From positions 1-19,892 of the forward strand of contig JBGSTX010000243.1 in assembly GCA_041736305.1 (NCBI GenBank): a stretch of 19,892 nt of DNA, written 5' to 3'. The position numbers and the translations under genes were made by a program. Below, piece after piece: positions 5,280-17,719 of the stretch; the stretch's first letter is position 1, and every line of letters begins with the position of its first letter. Source of the stretch: Oligoflexus sp. (lineage in GTDB: Bacteria; Bdellovibrionota_B; Oligoflexia; Oligoflexales; Oligoflexaceae). The notes beneath the pieces are model-generated. The model made no database searches, was not told the origin of the DNA, and worked only from the letters and a program-made list of their open reading frames with translations.

Positions 5280-5693
5280 ATGTTAAGAGAAAAAATTCTT
5301 AGGCCTAAGCTCCTACTGTTCGCCTTGCTAGGACTTGGTTTGAGTTCAAGTCTTTGGGCTCAGGGTTTTGGCGAATGCTATCAACTGCAATGGGGTTATG
5401 AATATAATTATAGGACAGGAGAAGGCCAGTCCTTTGATCCGACAATGCTTCCTGAAGGCAGCGCAGACGAAGACCTACAAACGCGAGATGCCTACGTCTG
5501 GTACTGTCAGGCGAAACCACTCTACGCCCCCACTTGGGACGTGGCAGGGAGTGGTACACGCTTTCACTCGTATAAAGCGTATCGGCTCGATGCTCAGGAT
5601 CAAGCCACCTTTCGCTGCGAGCGTTATGCCTCGCGCTGTACCTACCGCTGTGCGCTTGCGTCTAAATCCTGCGCGCCACATTTCTGGCCCTGA
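5280..5693 (+). CDS. Secreted hypothetical protein, 6 Cys
   Basis: Signal peptide (…LLLFALLGLGLSSSLWA/QG) and SD-like AGGGGG. C-terminal WYC…FRCERYASRCTYRCALASKSC. Confidence 0.7.
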   Translation: MLREKILRPKLLLFALLGLGLSSSLWAQGFGECYQLQWGYEYNYRTGEGQSFDPTMLPEGSADEDLQTRDAYVWYCQAKPLYAPTWDVAGSGTRFHSYKAYRLDAQDQATFRCERYASRCTYRCALASKSCAPHFWP

Positions 5694-5765: not shown

Positions 5766-6083
5766 TTACCAGCGACCATATCCATAGCAGTTTTGTGGGG
5801 GATAGTAATGATGGGGATAATGGTGATCGTCGCTATAAGGATTGCCGAGGATATAAGGGTAGCTGGCTCCGTCTCGATGCTCTGAATAATCATAGTAATA
5901 GCAGTGATGTGAGTAGTCTATACCCGTGCTGCTGTCCTGGTTCCGTTCTACTTGATTATCGTCCTGCTGAGCTGATGCAGAAGCTGAAGCGTCGTTTGAA
6001 AGTGCTGGAGTCGCCATGACTACGACTGAACCTGCGAGATAGCAGGCAAAAGCAAAAGCAAAAGCAAAGCTTAATTTTTTCAT
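5766..6083 (-). CDS. Small secreted protein with Tyr/His-rich C-terminal half
   Basis: SD AAGGAG 7 nt upstream and signal peptide MKKLSFAFAFAFACYLAGSVVVMA. The last 50 aa contain 13 Tyr, 7 His and 2 Cys. Confidence 0.75.
   Translation of the reverse strand: MKKLSFAFAFAFACYLAGSVVVMATPALSNDASASASAQQDDNQVERNQDSSTGIDYSHHCYYYDYSEHRDGASYPYILGNPYSDDHHYPHHYYPPQNCYGYGRW
6046..6068. repeat. Hexanucleotide tandem repeat (GCAAAA) x~3.8 encoding FAFAFAFA in the signal peptide
   Basis: GCAAAAGCAAAAGCAAAAGCAAA. Confidence 0.8.
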
Positions 6084-6878: not shown

Positions 6879-7052
6879 ATTCAATCCTCTTTTTTTCATG
6901 GGTAAAATGAAAGGACATCTTTTATCTGAAACAAGATCACGTGCTCCCGTTTCATTGAGTTCACTTGTAGAGGAGTTTATTTCAAAAAAAAAGTGGACCG
7001 GATTGCTCATAGCTACCGGGATGTTGCGAAGATAGTCTGTAAGACAAAGCGT

Positions 7053-10000
7053 CTATGTAGAAATCTGCGAGCGGGAAAATTCTCGCAGGATGCCGAGCAA
7101 GGCTGATCCGTATTTATCAATTTTTACGGGACCGATCCCTTCGATCCCTTTCAGCTCAGCTTCCGTCGAAGGCTGAGCTTCAGCCAGAGCAGCGAGAGTT
7201 TTATCACTGAACACTCTAAAAGCCGGAACCCGCTCATCTTTAGCCTGACGCAGCCGCCAACCTCGAAGACGCTGAGCCAAGGGCGTATCAAGGTAGGCGC
7301 TCTGCGAAGCTCGTTGTTTTTGAGAGCGCTCAGCCGTATCTCGCCGCGCAGAGCTGCGCTTTCGCGTCTTGGAGCTGGGCAGCCTTTCGCTTTGCCGGAG
7401 ACGCTGCTTGGCTTCTCCCAAGACCTCTTGCATCGCTATGGTGCCCCAATCTGCAAAGGCGGCTTCAGCGCTAGTTAAACCCACGGCACGATATTCAATG
7501 ATTTTTTTGTCTTTGGTAAAACTTTCGACGGTGATCTGCACGAGTCCTTCGCGTTGCATGGCTTCGAGACAGCGCTCAAAAGACCGTCGATCGTCGCTAT
7601 CTAGAGACTCGCAAACAGTTTCTTGGACTCTCTTGAGAGAAGCCAGTCGAGGATAAGGCGGCAGATGCTTAGCCATAGCCTGCATCATGTCTACTTCGTC
7701 TTGCGAGGGAGTACGGGTAACGCGACTGAGGGAGCTGCTGGGATCACAAACATCACAGATACCACAGCGGCTGTGATCGGGGCTTTGATCGCCGAAATGT
7801 TGCAAAAACTGCAGCATGCGGCAATTCTGTCTAGTCTCTGCGAAGAGACCGATCAGCTTGACCTCATGTTCCTTGTGAGCTTTTTGTGCTGCATAAGTCT
7901 TCTGCCAGGGCTTGAGCAGAGGTCGAACCTGGTCATCCTGTGTAATATCGATAGCTCCGTGTACCCAGAGCTTTTCGAGAGCATTATCCAAGACCCCGAT
8001 TTCGTCTATCCACGGGATGGCAATGCGATTGATTCCAGTCTCGGGTATTTTTTTCAAGACGGACTGGAGTACCTCAAGTTCGGGATAGTTCTTTTTTACG
8101 AAGAACTGCCGCGTGCGATGATCGGCGTAGGAATAGAGCAATACGGCTCGCGAATATTTACCGTCGCGCCCAGCTCTCCCAATCTCCTGGTAATAGCTTT
8201 CCACGCTCGAAGGTAGGGCTGAATGGACGACGCAACGAATATCACTTTTATCGATACCCATACCAAAAGCTATGGTGGCGACAATCGCATCCAAGCGACC
8301 GGCAAGGAAGTCGCTTTGTACTTGGAGCCGCCGTTCAGGAGAGAAGCCTGCATGATAGGCAGCCACGCGAATCGATCCGCCGAGAAGATTGGCCAATTCT
8401 TCGGTCTCTTTCCGAGTCGGAGCATAAACTATCGCTGGCAAGCTTCCAGGAGATTTCAAAAGAGCTTTGATCAGCTGTGGCCGGTCGGGCACCGATACTT
8501 CAGAAATCTCTATAGCAATGTTCTTTCGCCTGAACCCGTGAATGTGCATCTTCGGGTTCTGCAGCCCAAGCTGCTGCTCGATATCCCGCTGCACCTCTGG
8601 GGTCGCCGTCGCCGTCATCGCCACGATAGGTGCTGGGCGCAGACGGGGTAGGCGCTGGACCAGCATGCGGTATTCCGGGCGAAAGTCATGACCCCACTGC
8701 GAGATACAGTGGGCCTCGTCCACGGCGACTAGGGAAGGGGGATGCTGCACCAAGAGTTCAAGAAATCCACTGAGCCCCAAGCGTTCGGGTGCTATGTAAA
8801 GCAGCTTGAGCCGACCGTCCAAATAGGAGCGAAACACCTCCTTCGAGGCCTCGCGGCTCATCCCGGAATGGAGGGCACCCGCTGCGATTCCGAGAGAGCG
8901 GAGCTTGCCCACCTGATCGTCCATGAGAGCAATCAAAGGACTGATCACGAGCGCCGTACCGGGGCGCATAAGGGCCGGTAGCTGATAGCAGAGAGACTTG
9001 CCGGCTCCCGTCGGCATGACTAGCAGGAGATCGTGACCGTCGATAATCTCACGGCAGATCTGCTCTTGGTGTTCGCGGAAAAGCTGATGCCCAAAAACCT
9101 GGAAGAGAGTTTCCCCAAGGCTCAGAGACTGAGAATGCAATATTTTCGATCCCTGCACGGACTTCTCCATTTTTTCAGACTCGAAAGCTCGTTGGCTTTC
9201 TTTTAGGGGCGGCTTACTTGCCTGGACTGGCATGGGCAGCGGTTCTCGACGCTGGCTGCGCATCGACTGAATAATTTCGCTGACAAACGTGCCAATTTCG
9301 TTCATGAAAGTGGCGAGGTCCAGCTCTCCTGCTTCAATCTTCTTAAGCTTCGCTTCCCATTCACCAGTCAGGGTTGCGCTCCGGACACTCGGATGAACGA
9401 CAGAAATAAGAAGCTTCCCTCGTTCCGTGGCCCAAAGACCCTTATCGCGGCGCTCAACGTAGGCCCGAAAGATGAGGTTTTCGAGAATGGCGGCGCGGGT
9501 AGCCGGCGTCCCGAGGCCCCGCTCCCGCAAAATATCGGATAGTTCTCGGTCATCGAGCCGACTGCCGGCCGACGCCATAGCGTTCAAGAGAGCTGCATCG
9601 GAGAGGGCTGGCGGGGGCTTGGTTTCTTTTGCCAGCGGTTTGACCTCTTTGAGTTCCAAGAGAGTTTCGGCCTGGACGTAGGGTAGGGGATCTTTTTCAC
9701 GCTGCGAACGCAGCTCGAGACGCTTCCAACCCAGCTGTACTACGCTGCTGCCGCTGCTGCGAAAGTGATGTTGAAAACTTTCTCTCTGTGCCTCTAGCTC
9801 GCCTGACTTAGGCTTCAGCACGGAGATGATCGTGCACTGGCTCGATACGAAATTCTCCTGCCAGACCATCAGGAGGCGTCTTGCAATTAAGTCGAACACT
9901 TTCGCTTCTTCTGGGCTCAGACGCGATGGCTTCTTCCCGCTGGGAATGATGGCGTGGTGATCGCCTATTTTTGCGTCATCAACGTACGTGCGACCGAGAG

Positions 10001-11102
10001 GTCGAAGCCCCGTGTCGGGGTGTAGACCCAGATTCCGGTAGGGGGCATCGATAGCTGCGACGACAGCGGAAAGCCCCTTAGCCACTGTCGAGCTGAGATA
10101 ACGGCTGTCAGAGCGCGGATAGGTGATGAGCTTATGCTTTTCGTAAAGCTTTTGTGCTAGGTCCAGAGTCTGCTTGGCTTGAAACCCGAAAATGCGATTG
10201 GCATCCTTCTGCAGTTCAGTCAGATCGTAGAGCCGCGGGGCCTGAACTTTGATTTCCTTGTCCTCGCGCTGCAGTACCCTTGCCTCGGCGTGCCTAGCAT
10301 CGAGCAAAATACGCGCGATCTCGGGATCGCCCTCCTTAAAACGGTGGGCTTCGCTCTTGGCCACGCGTTTCGCTCCGGGCTTCGGTCGAAAGTAGAGGCC
10401 TTTAAAGAGAGACTCAGCCAGAAAGCTCGCTTCAATCTCGAAATAGGCCTCAGGCACAAAATTTTCTATAGCCTCAGTCCGCTCGACGATGAGCGCCAGC
10501 GTCGGCGTCTGGACCCGCCCAACTGTCAGCGACTGATGCTGCTCTAGGGTGTAGGCGCGTGAGAGGTTCAAACCGACAAGCCAGTCGGCTCGGCTCCGAC
10601 CGCGCGCGTTATCCGCCAGACGATCGTAGTCTTTGAGCGGGCGCAGAGATTGGAAGGCCGCGTTGATACTCTCCTGGGTCAGGGACGACAGCCAAAGACG
10701 CAGGACCGGTTTGGTACACCCCGCCTTTTCATATATGTAACGAAAGATCAGTTCGCCTTCCCGACCAGCATCAGTTGCGGCAATAAGCTGCGTGACCGAA
10801 GGGCGATCCATGAGGCTCTTTAGCACCGCAAACTGATCTGCAGTCTGCTCAGAAACAACTAAAGGCCAACGATCTGGCAGCATAGGCAAATAGTTTTCCT
10901 GCCATTTTTGCCAAGCAGGATTTATGTCTTGAGGTTCAGCCAAAGTAACGAGGTGTCCAATGGCCCAGCTGATCAGGGTATCAGGCCCTTCAAAATAGCC
11001 ACGCCCTCGAGGCGCTATTCCAAGAGCCTGCGCGAGATCCCGAGCTACAGAAGGTTTTTCGCTTATGATTAGTCTCAAATGAATAAGCCTCATCCTAGTC
11101 AA
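7053..11102 (-). CDS. topB-recQ: DNA topoisomerase III (type IA) - RecQ helicase - HRDC fusion protein; start possibly TTG 11078
   Basis: Topoisomerase motifs: SEKPSVA, ATDAGREGELI, VGRVQTPT, catalytic LITYPRSD and GLGTPATRA. RecQ motifs: MPTGAGKS, DEAHCISQWGHDFRPEY, TATA, ATIAFGMGIDK, QEIGRAGRDG and Zn site CR…CGICDVC. HRDC: LRGWR…VPAFRVFSDKTL…GIGPVKIDKYG. One uninterrupted ORF. Confidence 0.93.
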   Translation of the reverse strand: MTRMRLIHLRLIISEKPSVARDLAQALGIAPRGRGYFEGPDTLISWAIGHLVTLAEPQDINPAWQKWQENYLPMLPDRWPLVVSEQTADQFAVLKSLMDRPSVTQLIAATDAGREGELIFRYIYEKAGCTKPVLRLWLSSLTQESINAAFQSLRPLKDYDRLADNARGRSRADWLVGLNLSRAYTLEQHQSLTVGRVQTPTLALIVERTEAIENFVPEAYFEIEASFLAESLFKGLYFRPKPGAKRVAKSEAHRFKEGDPEIARILLDARHAEARVLQREDKEIKVQAPRLYDLTELQKDANRIFGFQAKQTLDLAQKLYEKHKLITYPRSDSRYLSSTVAKGLSAVVAAIDAPYRNLGLHPDTGLRPLGRTYVDDAKIGDHHAIIPSGKKPSRLSPEEAKVFDLIARRLLMVWQENFVSSQCTIISVLKPKSGELEAQRESFQHHFRSSGSSVVQLGWKRLELRSQREKDPLPYVQAETLLELKEVKPLAKETKPPPALSDAALLNAMASAGSRLDDRELSDILRERGLGTPATRAAILENLIFRAYVERRDKGLWATERGKLLISVVHPSVRSATLTGEWEAKLKKIEAGELDLATFMNEIGTFVSEIIQSMRSQRREPLPMPVQASKPPLKESQRAFESEKMEKSVQGSKILHSQSLSLGETLFQVFGHQLFREHQEQICREIIDGHDLLLVMPTGAGKSLCYQLPALMRPGTALVISPLIALMDDQVGKLRSLGIAAGALHSGMSREASKEVFRSYLDGRLKLLYIAPERLGLSGFLELLVQHPPSLVAVDEAHCISQWGHDFRPEYRMLVQRLPRLRPAPIVAMTATATPEVQRDIEQQLGLQNPKMHIHGFRRKNIAIEISEVSVPDRPQLIKALLKSPGSLPAIVYAPTRKETEELANLLGGSIRVAAYHAGFSPERRLQVQSDFLAGRLDAIVATIAFGMGIDKSDIRCVVHSALPSSVESYYQEIGRAGRDGKYSRAVLLYSYADHRTRQFFVKKNYPELEVLQSVLKKIPETGINRIAIPWIDEIGVLDNALEKLWVHGAIDITQDDQVRPLLKPWQKTYAAQKAHKEHEVKLIGLFAETRQNCRMLQFLQHFGDQSPDHSRCGICDVCDPSSSLSRVTRTPSQDEVDMMQAMAKHLPPYPRLASLKRVQETVCESLDSDDRRSFERCLEAMQREGLVQITVESFTKDKKIIEYRAVGLTSAEAAFADWGTIAMQEVLGEAKQRLRQSERLPSSKTRKRSSARRDTAERSQKQRASQSAYLDTPLAQRLRGWRLRQAKDERVPAFRVFSDKTLAALAEAQPSTEAELKGIEGIGPVKIDKYGSALLGILREFSRSQIST

Positions 11103-11114
11103 GAGGATGAGACT
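11086..11114 (-). promoter_or_regulatory. Hairpin covering the putative RBS/start region of topB-recQ
   Basis: On the minus-strand mRNA, AGUCUCAUCCU-(7 nt)-AGGAUGAGGCU forms 11 bp with one G-U pair. Confidence 0.4.
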
Positions 11115-11238
11115 AGCACAGGAAAAGCCCTATTTCGAAGGACATCCACGCCTTGGGTCAGGGACGGCAGCATAGGCGGCCCGGCACCTTTCTCCTAGAT
11201 GAGGGTCCGGGCCTGCGACTCAAAGTCGCCGAGAGTTC

Positions 11239-12471
11239 TTAGGCTGAAGGAGGCTGCGGGAGCTGTCCGGCATGTTTCTCCTGGAAAAGGGTCCTGACCT
11301 GCGCTTCAAAGTCGCTGAGCACATTATTGAAAATCACGTGAGCATCGTAAGGCGACGCATAGGGATTGAAATACTTATGCACGTCTCCATCACTGAACCA
11401 CTTCGTACACATGTAGTAGAAATGATCGGAGGTTTGCAGCTTCCTGAAGGTATGCAGCAGCTCCGGACTGCGAACGGCTTTGACCAAAGTCTCGAGTGCA
11501 TAGAGTCTTTCGATCGAAGCATCCTGGATGTGATTGCCGAGCCACGCGCTCAGATCTCGATCCACATCGGCCCAAGAGACGTAATCAGGATAGGAGAGCT
11601 TGCCTATAGGCTGCTTATATTGCAGCACCTCGCGCGGCGTAGCGAAGTTGAAGTCTCCATGGGACAAGACGGCTGTAGGAAGGGCCCGCATGAATTCAAA
11701 GATACCCGATTCCGCCCATTGGTGCTCACCAAAGGTTTCGTAATCCATGAAGAGGTTAATGACCTCGCCATTGCCGGCGACTTGATGAATCCAGTCAGCA
11801 TAGGTGGCGGCAGTCAAAGGCCACGAAGGCCAGTCGCGATTGGAAAAGCGAAATGCTACGTCATCCGATAAGCGATAGTTCTTCAAGAGCAGGCCAAGCT
11901 TGCGGCAAGGCGCCGGCTGATAAACGAAGTTGGGTGAGCGCCAGTCGAGGATTCGATCGACACCTTCAGCTAAAATGCCTTTAAATCCTAGACTTTCCAC
12001 CTGCTGTGCGATGCTGTCGCTGAAGATGAGCTCCGTGTTTCGGAAGACTTGCGTCTCGTAATCAAAGAGCTCGCGCAGCTTATTCCGATGCAGCTCGATC
12101 TGGGCGCGAAACTCATCAGGCGAAAATACGCTCGAGAGCGAGTGATAGTAGGTCTCCGAGAGAAGTTCAACCGCTCCCGTATCGACCAACCTTTGAAAGG
12201 AGTCGATGACATCAGGCGCATAGAGTTCAAACTGCTCCAGACAAACGCCGCTGATAGAAAACGCTACACGAAAACGCCCCTGCCACTGGTGGATCAGGTC
12301 CAGCAGCAGCTGATTCATAGGACGGTAGCACTTTTCAGCAACCTTCAGCATGATCGAGCGATTCGCGTCGTGATCTTCATAGAAGTGATCGCGACCGATC
12401 CGAAAAAAATCGTAGTCTTTGCGGAGGCGAAAAGGCTGATGGACCTGAAAGTAGAAGCAGATGCTCGTCAT
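11239..12471 (-). CDS. Glycoside hydrolase family 57 (alpha-amylase-like)
   Basis: FYFQVHQP, ELLSETYYH, FRNTEL (nucleophile E), FMDYETFGEH (acid/base D) and LQTSDHFYY. ATGA overlap with the upstream GT4 gene. Confidence 0.92.
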   Translation of the reverse strand: MTSICFYFQVHQPFRLRKDYDFFRIGRDHFYEDHDANRSIMLKVAEKCYRPMNQLLLDLIHQWQGRFRVAFSISGVCLEQFELYAPDVIDSFQRLVDTGAVELLSETYYHSLSSVFSPDEFRAQIELHRNKLRELFDYETQVFRNTELIFSDSIAQQVESLGFKGILAEGVDRILDWRSPNFVYQPAPCRKLGLLLKNYRLSDDVAFRFSNRDWPSWPLTAATYADWIHQVAGNGEVINLFMDYETFGEHQWAESGIFEFMRALPTAVLSHGDFNFATPREVLQYKQPIGKLSYPDYVSWADVDRDLSAWLGNHIQDASIERLYALETLVKAVRSPELLHTFRKLQTSDHFYYMCTKWFSDGDVHKYFNPYASPYDAHVIFNNVLSDFEAQVRTLFQEKHAGQLPQPPSA

Positions 12472-13739
12472 CGTATCACCCTCTGGTAAATCAGTTTGAG
12501 TTGCTCCGCGACTCGATGCCAGGACATCCCCAGGAGAGTGGTCTCCTGCGCGCTGACCATTTCCGATTTAAGCCGCTTATTCTCGCAAAAATCTACCATC
12601 ATATCGGCAAGTGTGGCGATATCCCAGAAGTCGACCTGTACCGAATGCGGTAGAAGCTCCGCGGCCCCGGTTTGCTTGGAAACAATGACGGGAACGCTGT
12701 AGCGCATCGCTTCGAAGGGCGTGAGACCAAAGGGCTCCGACACCGAAGTCATCACGAAGAGGTCGGCCATACTATAGAGCCGATCGAGTGCCTCGCCGCG
12801 CAAGAAGCCGGTGAAATGAAAATTCTTCGTGATGCGCAGGGCAGCCGCCTCTTCGATCATGCGCGGCAGCATGTCTCCCGCGCCACACATCACAAAACGG
12901 TAATTGGGATGACGGGCGATGACGCGAGCGGCAGCGCGCAGAAAGTATTCGGGCCCCTTCTGCAGAGTAATACGCCCAACGAAAATAATGAGCTTCTCCC
13001 GAAACCCGCGTTCAATCGTATCGGGATCGATCAGCTTATCGTGAATCACCGCATTGTGAATCACATCGATCTTTTCATCGTCGATCTGATAGCGCTGCTT
13101 AAGGGTCTCTTTGGTGCGGTGGCTGACTGCGACGATCACATCGGCAGCATCTAGTCCCTGCTGTTCGATAGCGAGGATCCCAGGGTTAGGATGGTCGCCG
13201 GTTCTATCATATTCCGTAGCGTGGATATGCGCGACGAAAGGACGGCCAGAACGCTCTTTGGCGGCTATAGCTGCGGGAAAAGTCATCCAATCGTGAGCGT
13301 GGATCACATCGAAATCGCCTCGGGCACCCATGCGAAACCCGACTTCAGCAAAGCGCTGGACCTCATCGAAAAGGTTGTTGGCATAGTGGCCCGACATGGT
13401 GATGATGCTTTCCTGCTTGCCGTCGCCGTTTTTTTGAAGGTGCCTGACCCGCTCAAAGACCGGCGTATAATCCTCTTCGTTGAGGTAAGGCAGGAGGGGA
13501 GAGGAGACGGACCAGACCGTAACGTTTGGGGGTAGACTGAATTCCGGATCGAGCGCCTCGACTTCGTTGGCCGAAAGAACGCGATAGCCCTCGCGTGGCA
13601 CCGACTGTTCGGCTCGCGGCATGACGAAAATCACGTCCTCACCGCTTTCAGCCAGATGCTTGGTTATGCCGTAGCAGGCTGTGCCTAAGCCGCCGCTGAT
13701 CATAGGAGGAAATTCCCAACCAAACATCAGTACCCGCAT
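12468..13739 (-). CDS. Glycosyltransferase family 4 (glycogen/alpha-glucan synthase-like)
   Basis: MRVLMFGWEFPP..SGGLG, HAHDW, HIHATEYDR, FVGRITLQKG and SVSEPFGLTPFEAM (GT-B E-x7-E). Confidence 0.9.
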   Translation of the reverse strand: MRVLMFGWEFPPMISGGLGTACYGITKHLAESGEDVIFVMPRAEQSVPREGYRVLSANEVEALDPEFSLPPNVTVWSVSSPLLPYLNEEDYTPVFERVRHLQKNGDGKQESIITMSGHYANNLFDEVQRFAEVGFRMGARGDFDVIHAHDWMTFPAAIAAKERSGRPFVAHIHATEYDRTGDHPNPGILAIEQQGLDAADVIVAVSHRTKETLKQRYQIDDEKIDVIHNAVIHDKLIDPDTIERGFREKLIIFVGRITLQKGPEYFLRAAARVIARHPNYRFVMCGAGDMLPRMIEEAAALRITKNFHFTGFLRGEALDRLYSMADLFVMTSVSEPFGLTPFEAMRYSVPVIVSKQTGAAELLPHSVQVDFWDIATLADMMVDFCENKRLKSEMVSAQETTLLGMSWHRVAEQLKLIYQRVIR

Positions 13740-13757: not shown

Positions 13758-15728
13758 TCAAGATTGTTGGCCTATCTCAAGCAAGTCCATCAGTCGAATG
13801 AGTTCGGCCACGCTCCAGGCCTGTGAAATGCAGCCGTTGGGAGCGTAAGGCGGGTACGCGTCAAAGATTTCAGATACCCCCATAATACCCGCTTGCGAGA
13901 GGTGATCTGTCCATAGGGGTTCCAGATTTGTTCGCAAAAAGGCCTTCATCTCTGCATGGTCCTTCTCCTCGCTGACCCTTAGCATCCCCAGAGCATAATG
14001 ATAGACGAGCCAAGGCCATACTGTACCCTGATGATAGCTGCGGTCGCGCTGTGCAGAGCTGCCTTGATAGAAAGGCTCAAAGGCAGGATCGAGAGGGGCG
14101 AGCGTACGCAGGCCTACGGGCGTCAGGAGCTGAGCGGTGACCTTGTGCATGATGCTCCGCTGCTCGGCTATTCCGATCGGACTCCGCCGGAGACTTACAG
14201 CGAATATTTGATTGGGACGGAGCGAGGCATCGACAAAATTTTGATCGATGCAATCGGCAAGATAGCCGGCCTGAGGAAGCCAGAAACGAGCTTTAAAAGC
14301 CCGCGGCAAGCTCTCCAGCACGGGCATCAGCCGGGGAGAAAATTCCTGTGCCAGATCTTTGGCCAGCTCGTAGACGAAGCCAACGGCGTTGTACCAGAGG
14401 GCGTTGACTTCAACGGCTAGCCCCGAGCGGGGTGTGATAGGGAGCCCATTGACCTTGGCGTCCATCCAAGTCAGCTGAGTTCTCTTGTTTCCTGCATGGA
14501 GTAGACCCTCCCCATCCACGTGCGCGACGGGGCAACGGCCCTCGCAGAGATCGAGGAGTAGATTCTGGAGTTTGGGGAAGAGCTTGCCTAGAGCTTCCCT
14601 CGGGGCTCCGCTGCTTCGATAATCATCCAGAGCGGCGAACATCCAGAGTACAGCATCGATCGAACCATAGTTGGGTGCAGCTGTACCTGAGCCAAGGAAA
14701 TTGGGGATCAAGCCTTGTGAAGCTTGAGCCATAAAGGTCTCGACGACTTCGATGAGCCGCTCAGGCTGGCCCCGTGCCAGCGTTAGTCCCGGGAGGGCAA
14801 TCATAGCGTCGCGGCCCCACTCGCCAAACCAAGGGTAGCCGGCGGCGATGGAGAGCGCCCCATCGGCCCGTCGGACCATGAATTTTTCCGCTTCGTATTT
14901 GAGTTCTGCCTGCGGTGAAGGCGAAGAAGAGAAAGACTTTGCCAGCTGGACCCGCCGCTGCTCTTCCCGTTCCCAGTCTGTGCGCAGAGCCTGCGAGGCC
15001 GTAGGCACTAGGCCAAAGCCCAAGATCAGATCTTCCCCGAGACTGAGACTGGCTTCGAAAATCCCGGGACAAAACAGGTCTTCTTGATAATCGAAGCCTC
15101 GTTCTTGCTCGACCATATATTCGATCTGCTTGACCCAATAGGGTCCTGGGAAAAACTGCACCTGACGGTCGGCACTGACGTGTAGAGGAGGTTTCCCTGG
15201 CAAGGGTTCAATTTTCCAACCCTCTCCTTCGGGAAAAGTTTTAACCTGAAACTCAGCCGTCTCTTGCCTCAGGTGATGGTGGCTGCGATAGGCTAGGAGA
15301 GGGCGAAAAGTCAGCTGGGCGCTCTCACCTTCGATCATCCGGTAGCGGATGAGTACGACATCGGAGTCATGGAGGAGGAGCTGGCTGCGCTCGATCAGAA
15401 AAGAACCAACCCGATACCCGAGAGCTGGACAGTGATCATAGCGAAAATACTCGACATGATTATAGCCTTCGGGAAAATATACCGCATTGGGATGCTTGTT
15501 GGTAAAGAGGTCGATCGTTCGACCCCGATGAGTCAGGCTGGTTTCAAGCTTGGCGAGAAAATTAAACTTGTCTGCTAGATAGCCAGCATCGCTGATGAGG
15601 AGTCCATGATATCGACGCGTCGGGCAGTCCAAAATCGTATTCGAGCTGTAGCTGCCACGCGAGTTGGCGTCGAGCCACTCGCGCGAGAGAAGTGCCTGCA
15701 TTTTTTGCGAGGCTGCCTTGAGCAACAT
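13758..15728 (-). CDS. Amylo-alpha-1,6-glucosidase (GH133; GDE_N + GDE_C glycogen debranching enzyme, prokaryotic type)
   Basis: REWL…TRRYHGLL (GDE_N), AGYPWFGEWGRD, LTWMDAK…TPR.G.AVEVNALWYNA, RPNQ, LLTPVGLRTL, YHQGTVWPWL and SEIFD…GCISQAWSVAE. Confidence 0.93.
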   Translation of the reverse strand: MLLKAASQKMQALLSREWLDANSRGSYSSNTILDCPTRRYHGLLISDAGYLADKFNFLAKLETSLTHRGRTIDLFTNKHPNAVYFPEGYNHVEYFRYDHCPALGYRVGSFLIERSQLLLHDSDVVLIRYRMIEGESAQLTFRPLLAYRSHHHLRQETAEFQVKTFPEGEGWKIEPLPGKPPLHVSADRQVQFFPGPYWVKQIEYMVEQERGFDYQEDLFCPGIFEASLSLGEDLILGFGLVPTASQALRTDWEREEQRRVQLAKSFSSSPSPQAELKYEAEKFMVRRADGALSIAAGYPWFGEWGRDAMIALPGLTLARGQPERLIEVVETFMAQASQGLIPNFLGSGTAAPNYGSIDAVLWMFAALDDYRSSGAPREALGKLFPKLQNLLLDLCEGRCPVAHVDGEGLLHAGNKRTQLTWMDAKVNGLPITPRSGLAVEVNALWYNAVGFVYELAKDLAQEFSPRLMPVLESLPRAFKARFWLPQAGYLADCIDQNFVDASLRPNQIFAVSLRRSPIGIAEQRSIMHKVTAQLLTPVGLRTLAPLDPAFEPFYQGSSAQRDRSYHQGTVWPWLVYHYALGMLRVSEEKDHAEMKAFLRTNLEPLWTDHLSQAGIMGVSEIFDAYPPYAPNGCISQAWSVAELIRLMDLLEIGQQS

Positions 15729-15973: not shown

Positions 15974-17719
15974 TCAAGTGGTCCGGAGCGCTGCGGCAAT
16001 CACCCTCACGCCACAGGGTTCCAGGTTCAGAGTAAAAGCGGGGGAAGACACCGCGATATCTTGTCCTGAAAAGAGGTCGAAGAGTTGACGATCCTTCAGC
16101 AGTGCTTCTAAGAGATCAATGGTAATGAACTGCGGATTGTGGATATCCAGGTTCGCGACGACAAGATAGCTCGTGCTATCCGTAGCTGCCGCGCAATAGC
16201 GCAAAGCGGCGAGGACGGCAGGATGTTCGTGATCGACGAAACGAATGGAAGCTCCTTGTTGAAACTGAGGAATAGTAGCCAACCACTGGTTAACCTGCCT
16301 GATCAAACTGCTGAAGTCGGCTCCCTCTGCGAATTGCAGCTGCGGATTGCGGCCGATAAAATTGATTTTATTCAGCAAGCCTCGTTCAACGCCCTGACTC
16401 ATACCGGTAGCACCCGTCCCAAGCAGAGCCGAGACGAGGTAACGAGGTGCGGTGGAGCCGACCGCAGCGAATTCTTGGGCCGGCGTCCCGCTGTCGTGAG
16501 AGTTGACGGGACAAAACCAAGGCAGAAACGCGCTCGTTTCGTGCAGATAACGCAGGTAGCGGCGCAGCTCATGGGTAAAATGGTGTTCCCACAGCGTGCC
16601 GAGGAGAAAATCGATCTCATCCTGTTTGACTGTTAGAAGTAAGCGTTCATGTGACCCAAAAAATTCGCCCAAAATTCCAAGATTTGGAAATAACTGCCTG
16701 ATTTCTCTCGTTATGGCTGAGGCAAAGGGGGGATAGGTGCTGTGAAGATTATCCAGACGCAGCATGCCCTTTGTTCGTGCTGCATAAGCAGCCCAGTAGA
16801 GAGAATACGCGCGAAAATAGCTCCAAATCTGCTGCCGGGTTTCCGGATGTGGATGAGCATAATTGATGAGGACTAAATCATCCCATTTTTCCCAGCGATC
16901 CCCAGCCATGTATCCTGCTCGTTTCAAGCCATCACTTTCGCTCTGATCGGGAATGATCCAGTCCGGACATTCGCTGGCGATGCGGCTATCGACGGCAACG
17001 TGATTAAGCACCAGGTCCAGGCAGAGGCCAAGGCCGAGATCGCTGGCCTCTTGCACGAAGCTCTCCCAAGTTTCAAGGGCAGTAGAAACAAGGTCTCTGT
17101 CGAAGAGATCAGGTTCGAATTCAAACAGATCGCGGGCCGCATAAGGACTCTGCGAGTGCCCCTGCCGCGTTAGAGGTAAGAGATGCAGCATGTTGAAACC
17201 GAGGTCTTTGATGCGGGTTAGCTCAGCTGCCCAGGTATGCATGGGACCGAGTGCGCTGGGAATAGAGATGTACATGCGGAGGCCACAGAGCTGCTGCGGA
17301 TAGACCAGCAGCAAGAGGGGAGGGCCGCGCATCCAGAACCACTGCTGCCCGTCGAGCGTGTACTGAGCATATATATAGAAGCGGCCAGCGCCTTCGAGGA
17401 GTTTTTCTAGTACGAAAGCTCCGTCAGCCGCGGGTCTCAGGGCGAAAGTTCGAAATTCTCTGAAGGGCTGTGCAGCAAAGAGATTGCTGAGCAGGCGCAC
17501 GGCAGGAGCCGCAGGTGCTTGACTCGTGCGCAGCAGTACGCGCAGATTCAACAGAACTCCAACTGGCAGCACAGCTCGCTGTGAGGTGGGGCTTTGCAGG
17601 TCCCAGATGGCTTCATCAGCCTGCCCCATCCGCATTTGACTCGATGGAAGCGCTGGTATCGAAGCGACTTCCGCATTTTGCGGCCCTGTTTTAAGCATAT
17701 CCGCTGCCTTCCTCCCCAT
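15974..17719 (-). CDS. GH13 enzyme resembling the 4-alpha-glucanotransferase domain of eukaryotic glycogen debranching enzyme, with GlgE-like C-terminal half; start uncertain
   Basis: ALGPMHTW…DLGFNMLHLLPL…GHSQSPYA, DLVLNHVAVDS, WDDLVLINY, LRLDNLHST (nucleophile D), ILGEFF (acid/base E), VNSHD and YLVVANLD. Confidence 0.8.
   Translation of the reverse strand: MGRKAADMLKTGPQNAEVASIPALPSSQMRMGQADEAIWDLQSPTSQRAVLPVGVLLNLRVLLRTSQAPAAPAVRLLSNLFAAQPFREFRTFALRPAADGAFVLEKLLEGAGRFYIYAQYTLDGQQWFWMRGPPLLLLVYPQQLCGLRMYISIPSALGPMHTWAAELTRIKDLGFNMLHLLPLTRQGHSQSPYAARDLFEFEPDLFDRDLVSTALETWESFVQEASDLGLGLCLDLVLNHVAVDSRIASECPDWIIPDQSESDGLKRAGYMAGDRWEKWDDLVLINYAHPHPETRQQIWSYFRAYSLYWAAYAARTKGMLRLDNLHSTYPPFASAITREIRQLFPNLGILGEFFGSHERLLLTVKQDEIDFLLGTLWEHHFTHELRRYLRYLHETSAFLPWFCPVNSHDSGTPAQEFAAVGSTAPRYLVSALLGTGATGMSQGVERGLLNKINFIGRNPQLQFAEGADFSSLIRQVNQWLATIPQFQQGASIRFVDHEHPAVLAALRYCAAATDSTSYLVVANLDIHNPQFITIDLLEALLKDRQLFDLFSGQDIAVSSPAFTLNLEPCGVRVIAAALRTT

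Follow-up and report, generated by a model that had tools for sequence, protein, structure and literature searches.

A single gene in the genome of an Oligoflexus species encodes a DNA topoisomerase III (Topo III) and a RecQ helicase in one polypeptide. The gene lies at 7053..11102 on the minus strand of the window, the 19,892-nucleotide stretch analyzed here, which is one whole contig (JBGSTX010000243.1) of assembly GCA_041736305.1 (5.02 Mb, 392 contigs, 92.7% complete). Its open reading frame (ORF) contains 1349 codons plus a stop, and translation shows zero internal stops, confirming the uninterrupted frame, free of stops and frameshifts, that an initial annotation of the sequence had described. 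This is a genuine, intact chromosomal gene encoding Topo III and RecQ as a single polypeptide; rather than being peculiar to the window, it belongs as an ordinary member to a large family that has been annotated automatically. All features of the gene given below are on the minus strand.

The N-terminal module is, judged by its motifs, a catalytically complete DNA topoisomerase III of the bacterial type. A Toprim domain (PF01751; residues 11-139, positions 10686..11072) carries the invariant E15 together with an acidic cluster, D111/E115/E117, and it is followed by the type IA topoisomerase core (Topoisom_bac; residues 159-600, positions 9303..10628; Pfam expectation value (E) 3.8e-100). The catalytic tyrosine, Y328, sits in an ITYPR context that aligns with its counterpart in E. 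coli Topo III. Its codon (10119..10121, read as 10121..10119) is where the initial annotation had placed it, and the two domains and these residues bear out the intact type IA topoisomerase claimed there. The N-terminal 640 residues score above the NCBIfam cut-offs of both NF005829 (PRK07726; 623.2 bits versus 597) and TIGR01056 (topB; 537.9 bits versus 515.75). Over its full length, this part of the protein aligns with residues 1-610 of E. coli Topo III and includes, ungapped, the segment corresponding to residues ~497-520, which we take to be the position of the decatenation loop. The AlphaFold2 model shows the four-domain toroidal fold of E. coli Topo III (1d6m/1i7d; Foldseek target template modeling (TM) score of 0.80-0.83 over ~630 columns, 31% identity), which is the closest solved relative of this half (E 7e-83); human TOP3A-RMI1 (4cgy) matches the module with a TM score of 0.77. 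Pfam detects no Zn-ribbon or Toprim_Crpt domain after the topoisomerase core in the whole fusion protein, and the alignment ends at E. coli residue 610, in agreement with the earlier observation that the topoisomerase lacks C-terminal zinc ribbons.

The C-terminal module is, in the structural models, a RecQ helicase complete in domain order, with a helicase core, a Zn-binding domain, a winged helix (WH), and an HRDC domain. Lobe 1 of the core (DEAD; residues 677-838, positions 8589..9074) carries the Walker A residues G699/K702/S703 (9014..8994) and a DEAH box at residues 795-798 (8720..8709), and lobe 2 (Helicase_C; residues 879-981, positions 8160..8468) carries R976/R979. The Zn-binding domain (7746..8150) contains a RecQ_Zn_bind match (PF16124; residues 1071-1119) with cysteines C1094, C1113, C1116, and C1119, and the HRDC domain (PF00570; residues 1274-1339, positions 7086..7283) is found with an E value of 1.5e-20. 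These domains and their invariant Walker A, DEAH, and cysteine residues uphold the complete RecQ helicase, with Zn site and HRDC, of the initial annotation. Residues 666-1004 score above the cut-off of TIGR00614 (recQ_fam; 395.5 bits versus 219.8), and the score for NF008279 is below its cut-off (420.5 bits versus 1015). The E. coli RecQ core (1oyw) is the closest solved relative of this half (E 7e-94), and the RecQ cores 6crm, 4tmu, and 1oyw match the AlphaFold2 model with a TM score of 0.62 (Foldseek). A second model, of residues 985-1349, has a predicted local distance difference test (pLDDT) value of 82. In it, the Zn domain is elaborated by a helix, a β-hairpin, and a long helix; residues ~1134-1209 (7476..7703) form three helices and a β wing, with pLDDT above 90; and the HRDC domain forms five helices that match the E. 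coli RecQ HRDC (1wud) with a TM score of 0.86-0.94. Pfam returns no match to a winged helix or RQC domain, so the assignment of residues ~1134-1209 as an RQC-like winged helix is made by fold. The best fold matches of the C-terminal region are the Zn-WH-HRDC portion of BLM (~300 columns, with a low TM score over several domains), the E. coli HRDC, and assorted winged-helix proteins.

The two modules are joined by a linker of ~45 residues (residues ~615-660, positions 9122..9260) that is rich in proline, glutamine, and charged residues, as the initial annotation had described for ~9120-9260, and that is predicted to be disordered. An alignment of 19 fused proteins, 45-71% identical to the window protein, contains zero conserved columns in this segment, and its length among homologues ranges from ~30 residues (P0030) through ~45 here to ~90 residues (P0006 and P0110). 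In the AlphaFold2 model of residues 4-1200 (mean pLDDT 75, predicted TM score (pTM) 0.48), the linker at model positions 616-656 has pLDDT values of 26-46. None of the 50 Foldseek matches listed covers both modules, and a complex prediction for the topoisomerase half (4-615) with the RecQ C-terminal region (985-1349) returned a score of 0.00, which is uninformative on the interface. An ATG inside the linker (9170..9168), a candidate start for a separate RecQ, has no clear Shine-Dalgarno motif upstream. A second disordered linker, basic and variable, precedes the HRDC domain (residues ~1230-1270, positions 7293..7415; pLDDT below 50 at model positions 246-280). A near-identical relative recovered from sequencing run X2 carries an in-frame 6-nt insertion behind 7344, inside this linker, which fits the basic segment being unconstrained.

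The joining of the two genes could in principle be an artefact of misassembly, of a sequencing indel, or of a decaying pseudogene. The source assembly is fragmented and of the metagenome type, with 392 contigs, and one relative (L028) has its two halves in overlapping frames. Such an origin is exceedingly improbable, however. A contig from run X1 covers 7808-10229 with zero differences, and a contig from X2, a run of a different study, spans 8189-9788 and differs by 64 substitutions and zero gaps. Both contigs bridge the linker, and neither has there an indel of the kind that the initial annotation had named as a sign of misassembly. The catalytic residues are all intact. The database holds 7724 relatives (lengths searched, 741-2361 residues), and the best 120 of these all have topoisomerase and helicase domains, 117 of them with all six families; the fused relatives include proteins from contigs of 4-12 Mb. 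Runs X3 and X4 yielded short conserved helicase pieces of low likeness, near 8655-9017 and 10096-10133, and were left unused. Run X1 was the only run with all sampled words of the stretch; its label is that of a hot springs metagenome, and it is a possible source. Thermophily is not implied by this label because the family occurs in soil-type Acidobacteriota and Myxococcota.

Conservation within the family covers the active sites of both modules. In the 19 aligned sequences, E15, D111/E115/E117, Y328-P329-R330, G699/K702/S703, DEAH 795-798, R976/R979, C1094, C1113, C1116, C1119, and the core HRDC residues are invariant. The RecQ half has stand-alone relatives of the same subfamily in Acidobacteriaceae, such as Tunturibacter and Granulicella, and in some Myxococcota. 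These proteins are 44-46% identical to it over its whole length and share its Zn-domain elaboration, winged helix, and HRDC domain; they differ in having no topoisomerase module. When 187 RecQ positions conserved in the fused halves were compared with 14 stand-alone relatives, 163 were conserved in both groups and only six differed: S753, A986, L1042, W1046, H1048, and K1077. Within the Zn-domain elaboration, W1046 of the 'LEKLW' motif is kept in 93% of fused proteins and is variable in the stand-alone relatives. It is the one notable residue specific to the fused proteins and could, by its pattern of conservation, be a contact point.

The fusion is widespread. Every genome of the genus (13 of 13) has a match to the gene, and the best named relative of the protein is an Oligoflexus sp. 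record with 59% identity. Among the 31 nearest genomes, 18 carry the fusion, in 13 cases in one frame of at least 1300 residues and in five as junction-spanning genes cut by contig ends; in most of these genomes, a stand-alone Topo III (36-38% identical) is retained as well, together with a short RecQ. Across the phylum of the window, the fusion occurs in 26 of 131 genomes, whole in 21 and junction-spanning but truncated in five. Even sampling of two further phyla gives at least 31 of 301 genomes, plus two probable cases, in Myxococcota, and at least six of 301 in Acidobacteriota at E <= 1e-200; the former count is a minimum, since the initial screen was stricter there. Named carriers include Cystobacter fuscus (P0096), Archangium violaceum (P0110), Bryobacter, Solibacteraceae, Thermoanaerobaculia, and Polyangiaceae. 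The first two bear out the myxobacterial fusions mentioned in the initial annotation, and the architecture that it had proposed to map is found in three phyla, with close relatives not limited to two separate genes. In public annotation, the fused proteins appear as 'DNA topoisomerase 3' or 'RecQ'. Split and partial forms exist as well. In one genome of the window's phylum (G078), the halves are separate genes on different contigs (C35:28219-30093 and C168:8019-10022), in frames of 744 residues for the fusion-type topoisomerase and 692 residues for the RecQ. Two genomes of this phylum (G104 and G105) have the fusion-type topoisomerase only, and one of its families has the RecQ type only. Together, G078, G104, and G105 provide natural split or partial forms that are useful controls. 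In three genomes of the other phyla, Acidobacteriota and Myxococcota (G136-G138), type IA enzymes other than the fusion are represented by a single match, to a frame of TopA size, and the fusion is the only Topo III-type enzyme.

Phylogenetic trees separate both fused halves from stand-alone enzymes. In the topoisomerase tree, all 27 fused halves fall on one side of a starred branch (99*), opposite 50 stand-alone Topo IIIs. In the RecQ tree, all 28 fused halves fall in one starred clade (99*), to which the stand-alone RecQs of Acidobacteriaceae are basal. Five rows classed as 'alone' are nested in the fused RecQ clade; of these, L028 represents a fusion with a frameshift, and L045 is truncated at the start of its contig. 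Both are quick-search trees, and the polarity of the RecQ tree is tentative because its root is a single long outgroup branch. The simplest reading of these trees and of the distribution is that a particular RecQ subfamily fused once, long ago, with a Topo III and that the fusion then spread among three phyla, with occasional fission or loss. In a separate observation, the fused gene of one Polyangiaceae genome (G137, with rows L039 and L046) is extended at the N-terminus by ~270 residues (a 1597-residue frame), and this genome also encodes a stand-alone RecQ, a paralogue that the tree places as sister to the fused copy.

The fusion resembles several known systems and differs from each. E. coli RecQ and Topo III, which act with SSB, are the closest solved relatives of the two halves, and they too pair single-stranded DNA-dependent type IA strand passage with a 3'-5' helicase that feeds it. 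They are two separate proteins, whereas here both reside in one chain. The helicase of the fusion also comes from another subfamily, below the cut-off of the canonical recQ equivalog and with an elaborated Zn domain, and its topoisomerase half ends at the core, unlike E. coli Topo III. The eukaryotic BLM/Sgs1-TOP3A/Top3-RMI1(2) complexes likewise pair a RecQ helicase of Zn-WH-HRDC order with a Topo III-type enzyme, and BLM is the best fold match of the C-terminal region. The eukaryotic dissolvasome is non-covalent, however; it is held together by the N-terminus of the helicase, and it requires RMI1, an OB-fold protein that inserts into the gate of the topoisomerase. In contrast, the complex here is a covalent single chain. 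The RMI1 family (PF08585) has no match in the source genome, but the controls matched in 0 of 14 genomes, which makes this search uninformative.

Reverse gyrase, like the fusion, combines a superfamily 2 (SF2) helicase-type ATPase and a type IA topoisomerase in a single chain. Its helicase-like module is reduced, with no Zn, WH, or HRDC domains, its domains are connected by a rigid latch, and it occurs in thermophiles. Its helicase-like module is also N-terminal and its topoisomerase C-terminal, whereas the Pfam order here is topoisomerase then helicase, the opposite arrangement, as the initial annotation had recognized. Identity of the fusion with reverse gyrase was rejected on account of the inverted domain order, the presence of a full RecQ helicase, and the score of the reverse gyrase model TIGR01054, which reaches only 87.8 bits versus a cut-off of 471.7, on the topoisomerase part only. 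A passage of a 2020 paper describes reverse gyrase as the unique fusion of these units (PMC7245102). We found no published description of a natural bacterial Topo III-RecQ fusion in the full-text literature, with subscription-only papers outside the scope of the search; the initial annotation likewise knew of no biochemical characterization, and within the same scope none was found. The passages on RecQ or on fusion in two reviews mention no such protein (PMC2647321, PMC8185306). A DNA-damage-responsive 'RecQ' of Myxococcus xanthus, at locus 1950, has been described (PMC12288472); it could be of the fused or of the stand-alone type. What is new here is a widespread natural single-chain form, uncharacterized as far as we found; the cooperation of RecQ with Topo III is itself known.

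Type IA enzymes act on single-stranded DNA, and RecQ unwinds in the 3'-5' direction. Together, according to passages of two reviews, RecQ and Topo III form and undo catenanes of duplex DNA, resolve forks that converge, and remove double Holliday junctions by dissolution (PMC2647321, PMC8185306). From the architecture, motifs, conservation, distribution, and variable, disordered linker of the fusion, we infer its activities and the way in which they might be coupled. We consider it reasonably likely that the protein is a tethered RecQ-Topo III unlinking and dissolution enzyme in which both modules are catalytically complete. The RecQ module would bind branched or gapped DNA and unwind it with ATP, exposing single-stranded DNA. 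The tethered Topo III would then cleave one strand via Y328, pass another strand through its gate, and reseal the break. Repeated cycles could unlink hemicatenanes, converging replication forks, and precatenanes, and could dissolve double Holliday junctions without crossover, as E. coli RecQ with Topo III and eukaryotic BLM/Sgs1-Top3-Rmi1 do from separate polypeptides. The RecQ module takes the position that a Zn-ribbon or basic DNA-binding domain has at the C-terminus of other type IA enzymes, and it probably supplies substrate targeting. Fusion would ensure a 1:1 stoichiometry and a high local concentration and would not create a rigid new machine. 'Self-contained' is an unproven description of such an enzyme, because SSB or other partners may be needed.

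A tether is favored over a rigidly coupled machine because the linker is disordered and variable, the RecQ half is nearly unchanged relative to stand-alone enzymes (6 of 187 positions), and fissions are seen. In a coupled machine, ATP hydrolysis by RecQ would drive the Topo III gate in a directional reaction, for example to introduce positive supercoils or to carry out ATP-dependent duplex strand passage. This possibility, which we regard as doubtful, has in its favor the long retention of the fusion across three phyla and the fused-specific W1046, which could mark a contact surface. The enzyme would then be a mesophilic, inverted-order analogue of reverse gyrase, with which it shares an SF2 helicase, a topoisomerase of type IA, and a weak match to the reverse gyrase model on the topoisomerase part only. 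Against this reading, the match falls below its cut-off, and the helicase carries the WH and HRDC domains of a full RecQ, whereas the reverse gyrase module is reduced. A linker that varies from ~30 to 90 residues, the low pTM of the whole model, the absence of any fold match spanning both modules among the 50 listed, and the persistence of the modules as separate genes in some genomes all argue in the same direction. An emergent ATP-driven topological activity that is absent from either enzyme alone, such as processive duplex decatenation or positive supercoiling, and that would make this widespread mesophilic family a second, independently evolved reverse-gyrase-like class of inverted domain order, with W1046 in a transient interface, is unlikely. 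The flexible linker, the unchanged RecQ half, and the separate existence and persistence of the halves in some genomes would also suit a simpler arrangement, in which the modules work independently on different substrates and the fusion fixes their co-regulation and stoichiometry with no DNA hand-off. We consider this rather unlikely. Functional cooperation between RecQ and Topo III is seen in every system studied, as reported in passages of the two reviews (PMC2647321, PMC8185306), and the fusion has been kept across deep divergence. In addition, the topoisomerase half has no C-terminal DNA-binding domain of its own and, therefore, probably depends on the helicase for targeting.

A role as a DpdF-like helicase of an anti-phage or DNA-modification system, or of a mobile element, is suggested by the PADLOC profile PDLC02865 (labelled DpdF, 1499 positions), which matches both halves in three stretches with 1234 bits, PADLOC profiles having no curated cut-off. 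DpdF and PsyrT are RecQ-type SF2 helicases, as stated in part of a preprint (bioRxiv 10.1101/2024.02.29.582594). However, the curated DpdF model NF041063 gives 219.2 bits versus a cut-off of 550. None of 10 neighboring ORFs has a PADLOC match, the neighbors being glycogen, potassium-transport, and unannotated genes, and no neighbor is conserved across 15 loci. The match in every genome of the genus is as expected of a vertically inherited core gene. A defence function is, on this evidence, very unlikely, and the PDLC02865 label may reflect either a mis-assigned housekeeping architecture or the presence of fused homologues in some dpd clusters.

Several observations weigh against an unlinking and dissolution role for the tethered enzyme. 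The helicase scores below the cut-off of the canonical recQ equivalog TIGR01389 (505.5 bits versus 640.2); judged by these profile scores, it belongs to a distinct RecQ subfamily, whose own biochemistry may differ. None of five genomes with a stand-alone RecQ of this subfamily has a Topo III-type gene when queried with the topoisomerase half; four give only TopA-like matches of ~30% identity and one gives no match. Stand-alone RecQs in genomes with no Topo III found suggest a RecQ type without an intrinsic need for Topo III. The source genome, which the initial annotation had proposed to check for separate topB and recQ genes, does encode a stand-alone Topo III of 875 residues with Toprim_Crpt repeats, along with a RecQ-family helicase of 464 residues that has no Zn or HRDC matches. 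Because these two proteins coexist with the fusion, the latter is not the sole possible route to the reactions proposed. The genome also has a TopA-type gene, cut by a contig end, and HRDC and RecQ_Zn_bind each occur in it once, in the fusion. No neighbor beyond the fusion gene and overlapping frames is conserved in 15 fused loci (all-against-all comparison of ORFs in flanks of 1.5-3 kb), and the neighbors in the window, with functions in glycogen metabolism, TrkAH, and DUF4142, provide no functional clue. Finally, a linker that is disordered in the model would be compatible with a transient, functionally important interface.

The start codon of the gene is uncertain within 24 nt, with three candidates. 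TTG 11102 gives the longest ORF, and ATG 11093 is the start in the database annotation (P0002, 1346 residues). TTG 11078 gives the same N-terminus as that of homologues and has a GAGG 9 nt upstream. ATG 11093 and TTG 11078 are the likely starts. An inverted repeat of 11 pairs at 11086-11114 on the minus strand encloses the annotated ATG and could be a translational hairpin or an operator. A scan of 6900-11400 for promoters and terminators gave counts at shuffle expectation (2 versus 2.3 and 6 versus 4.8, respectively), and Rfam gave zero matches in the whole window. Upstream of the gene lies a glycogen cluster, in which a GH57 protein (11239-12471), a GT4/GT5 glycosyltransferase (12468-13739), a debranching enzyme with GDE_N and GDE_C domains (13758-15728), and an amylase/glucanotransferase-like protein (15974-17719) share the minus strand with the fusion, and glycogen phosphorylase is encoded on the plus strand from 17823 onwards, past the end of the window. 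Downstream are a DUF4142 protein, two small unannotated ORFs, and TrkA/TrkH. The small ORFs, at 5280-5693 on the plus strand and 5766-6083 on the minus strand, have signal-peptide-like N-termini and no Pfam or PADLOC match; one is rich in Cys, Trp, and Tyr, and the other has a tail rich in Tyr, His, and Asp.

The known RecQ-Topo III systems, E. coli RecQ/Topo III/SSB and BLM-TOP3A-RMI1/2, are loose multi-protein assemblies. The fusion bears on a standing question, namely how DNA is handed off between RecQ and a type IA topoisomerase in double Holliday junction dissolution and in the unlinking of converging forks. As a 1:1 chain with thousands of sequence variants, a natural range of linker lengths, and split forms, it offers a model ready for use in structural studies and in work on single molecules. 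The fusion also indicates that reverse gyrase is not the sole natural fusion of these two enzyme classes. Because some Acidobacteriota and Myxococcota genomes have no other Topo III-type enzyme, and the genome studied here has no other complete RecQ, the fusion protein is probably central to the control of recombination in abundant soil bacteria.

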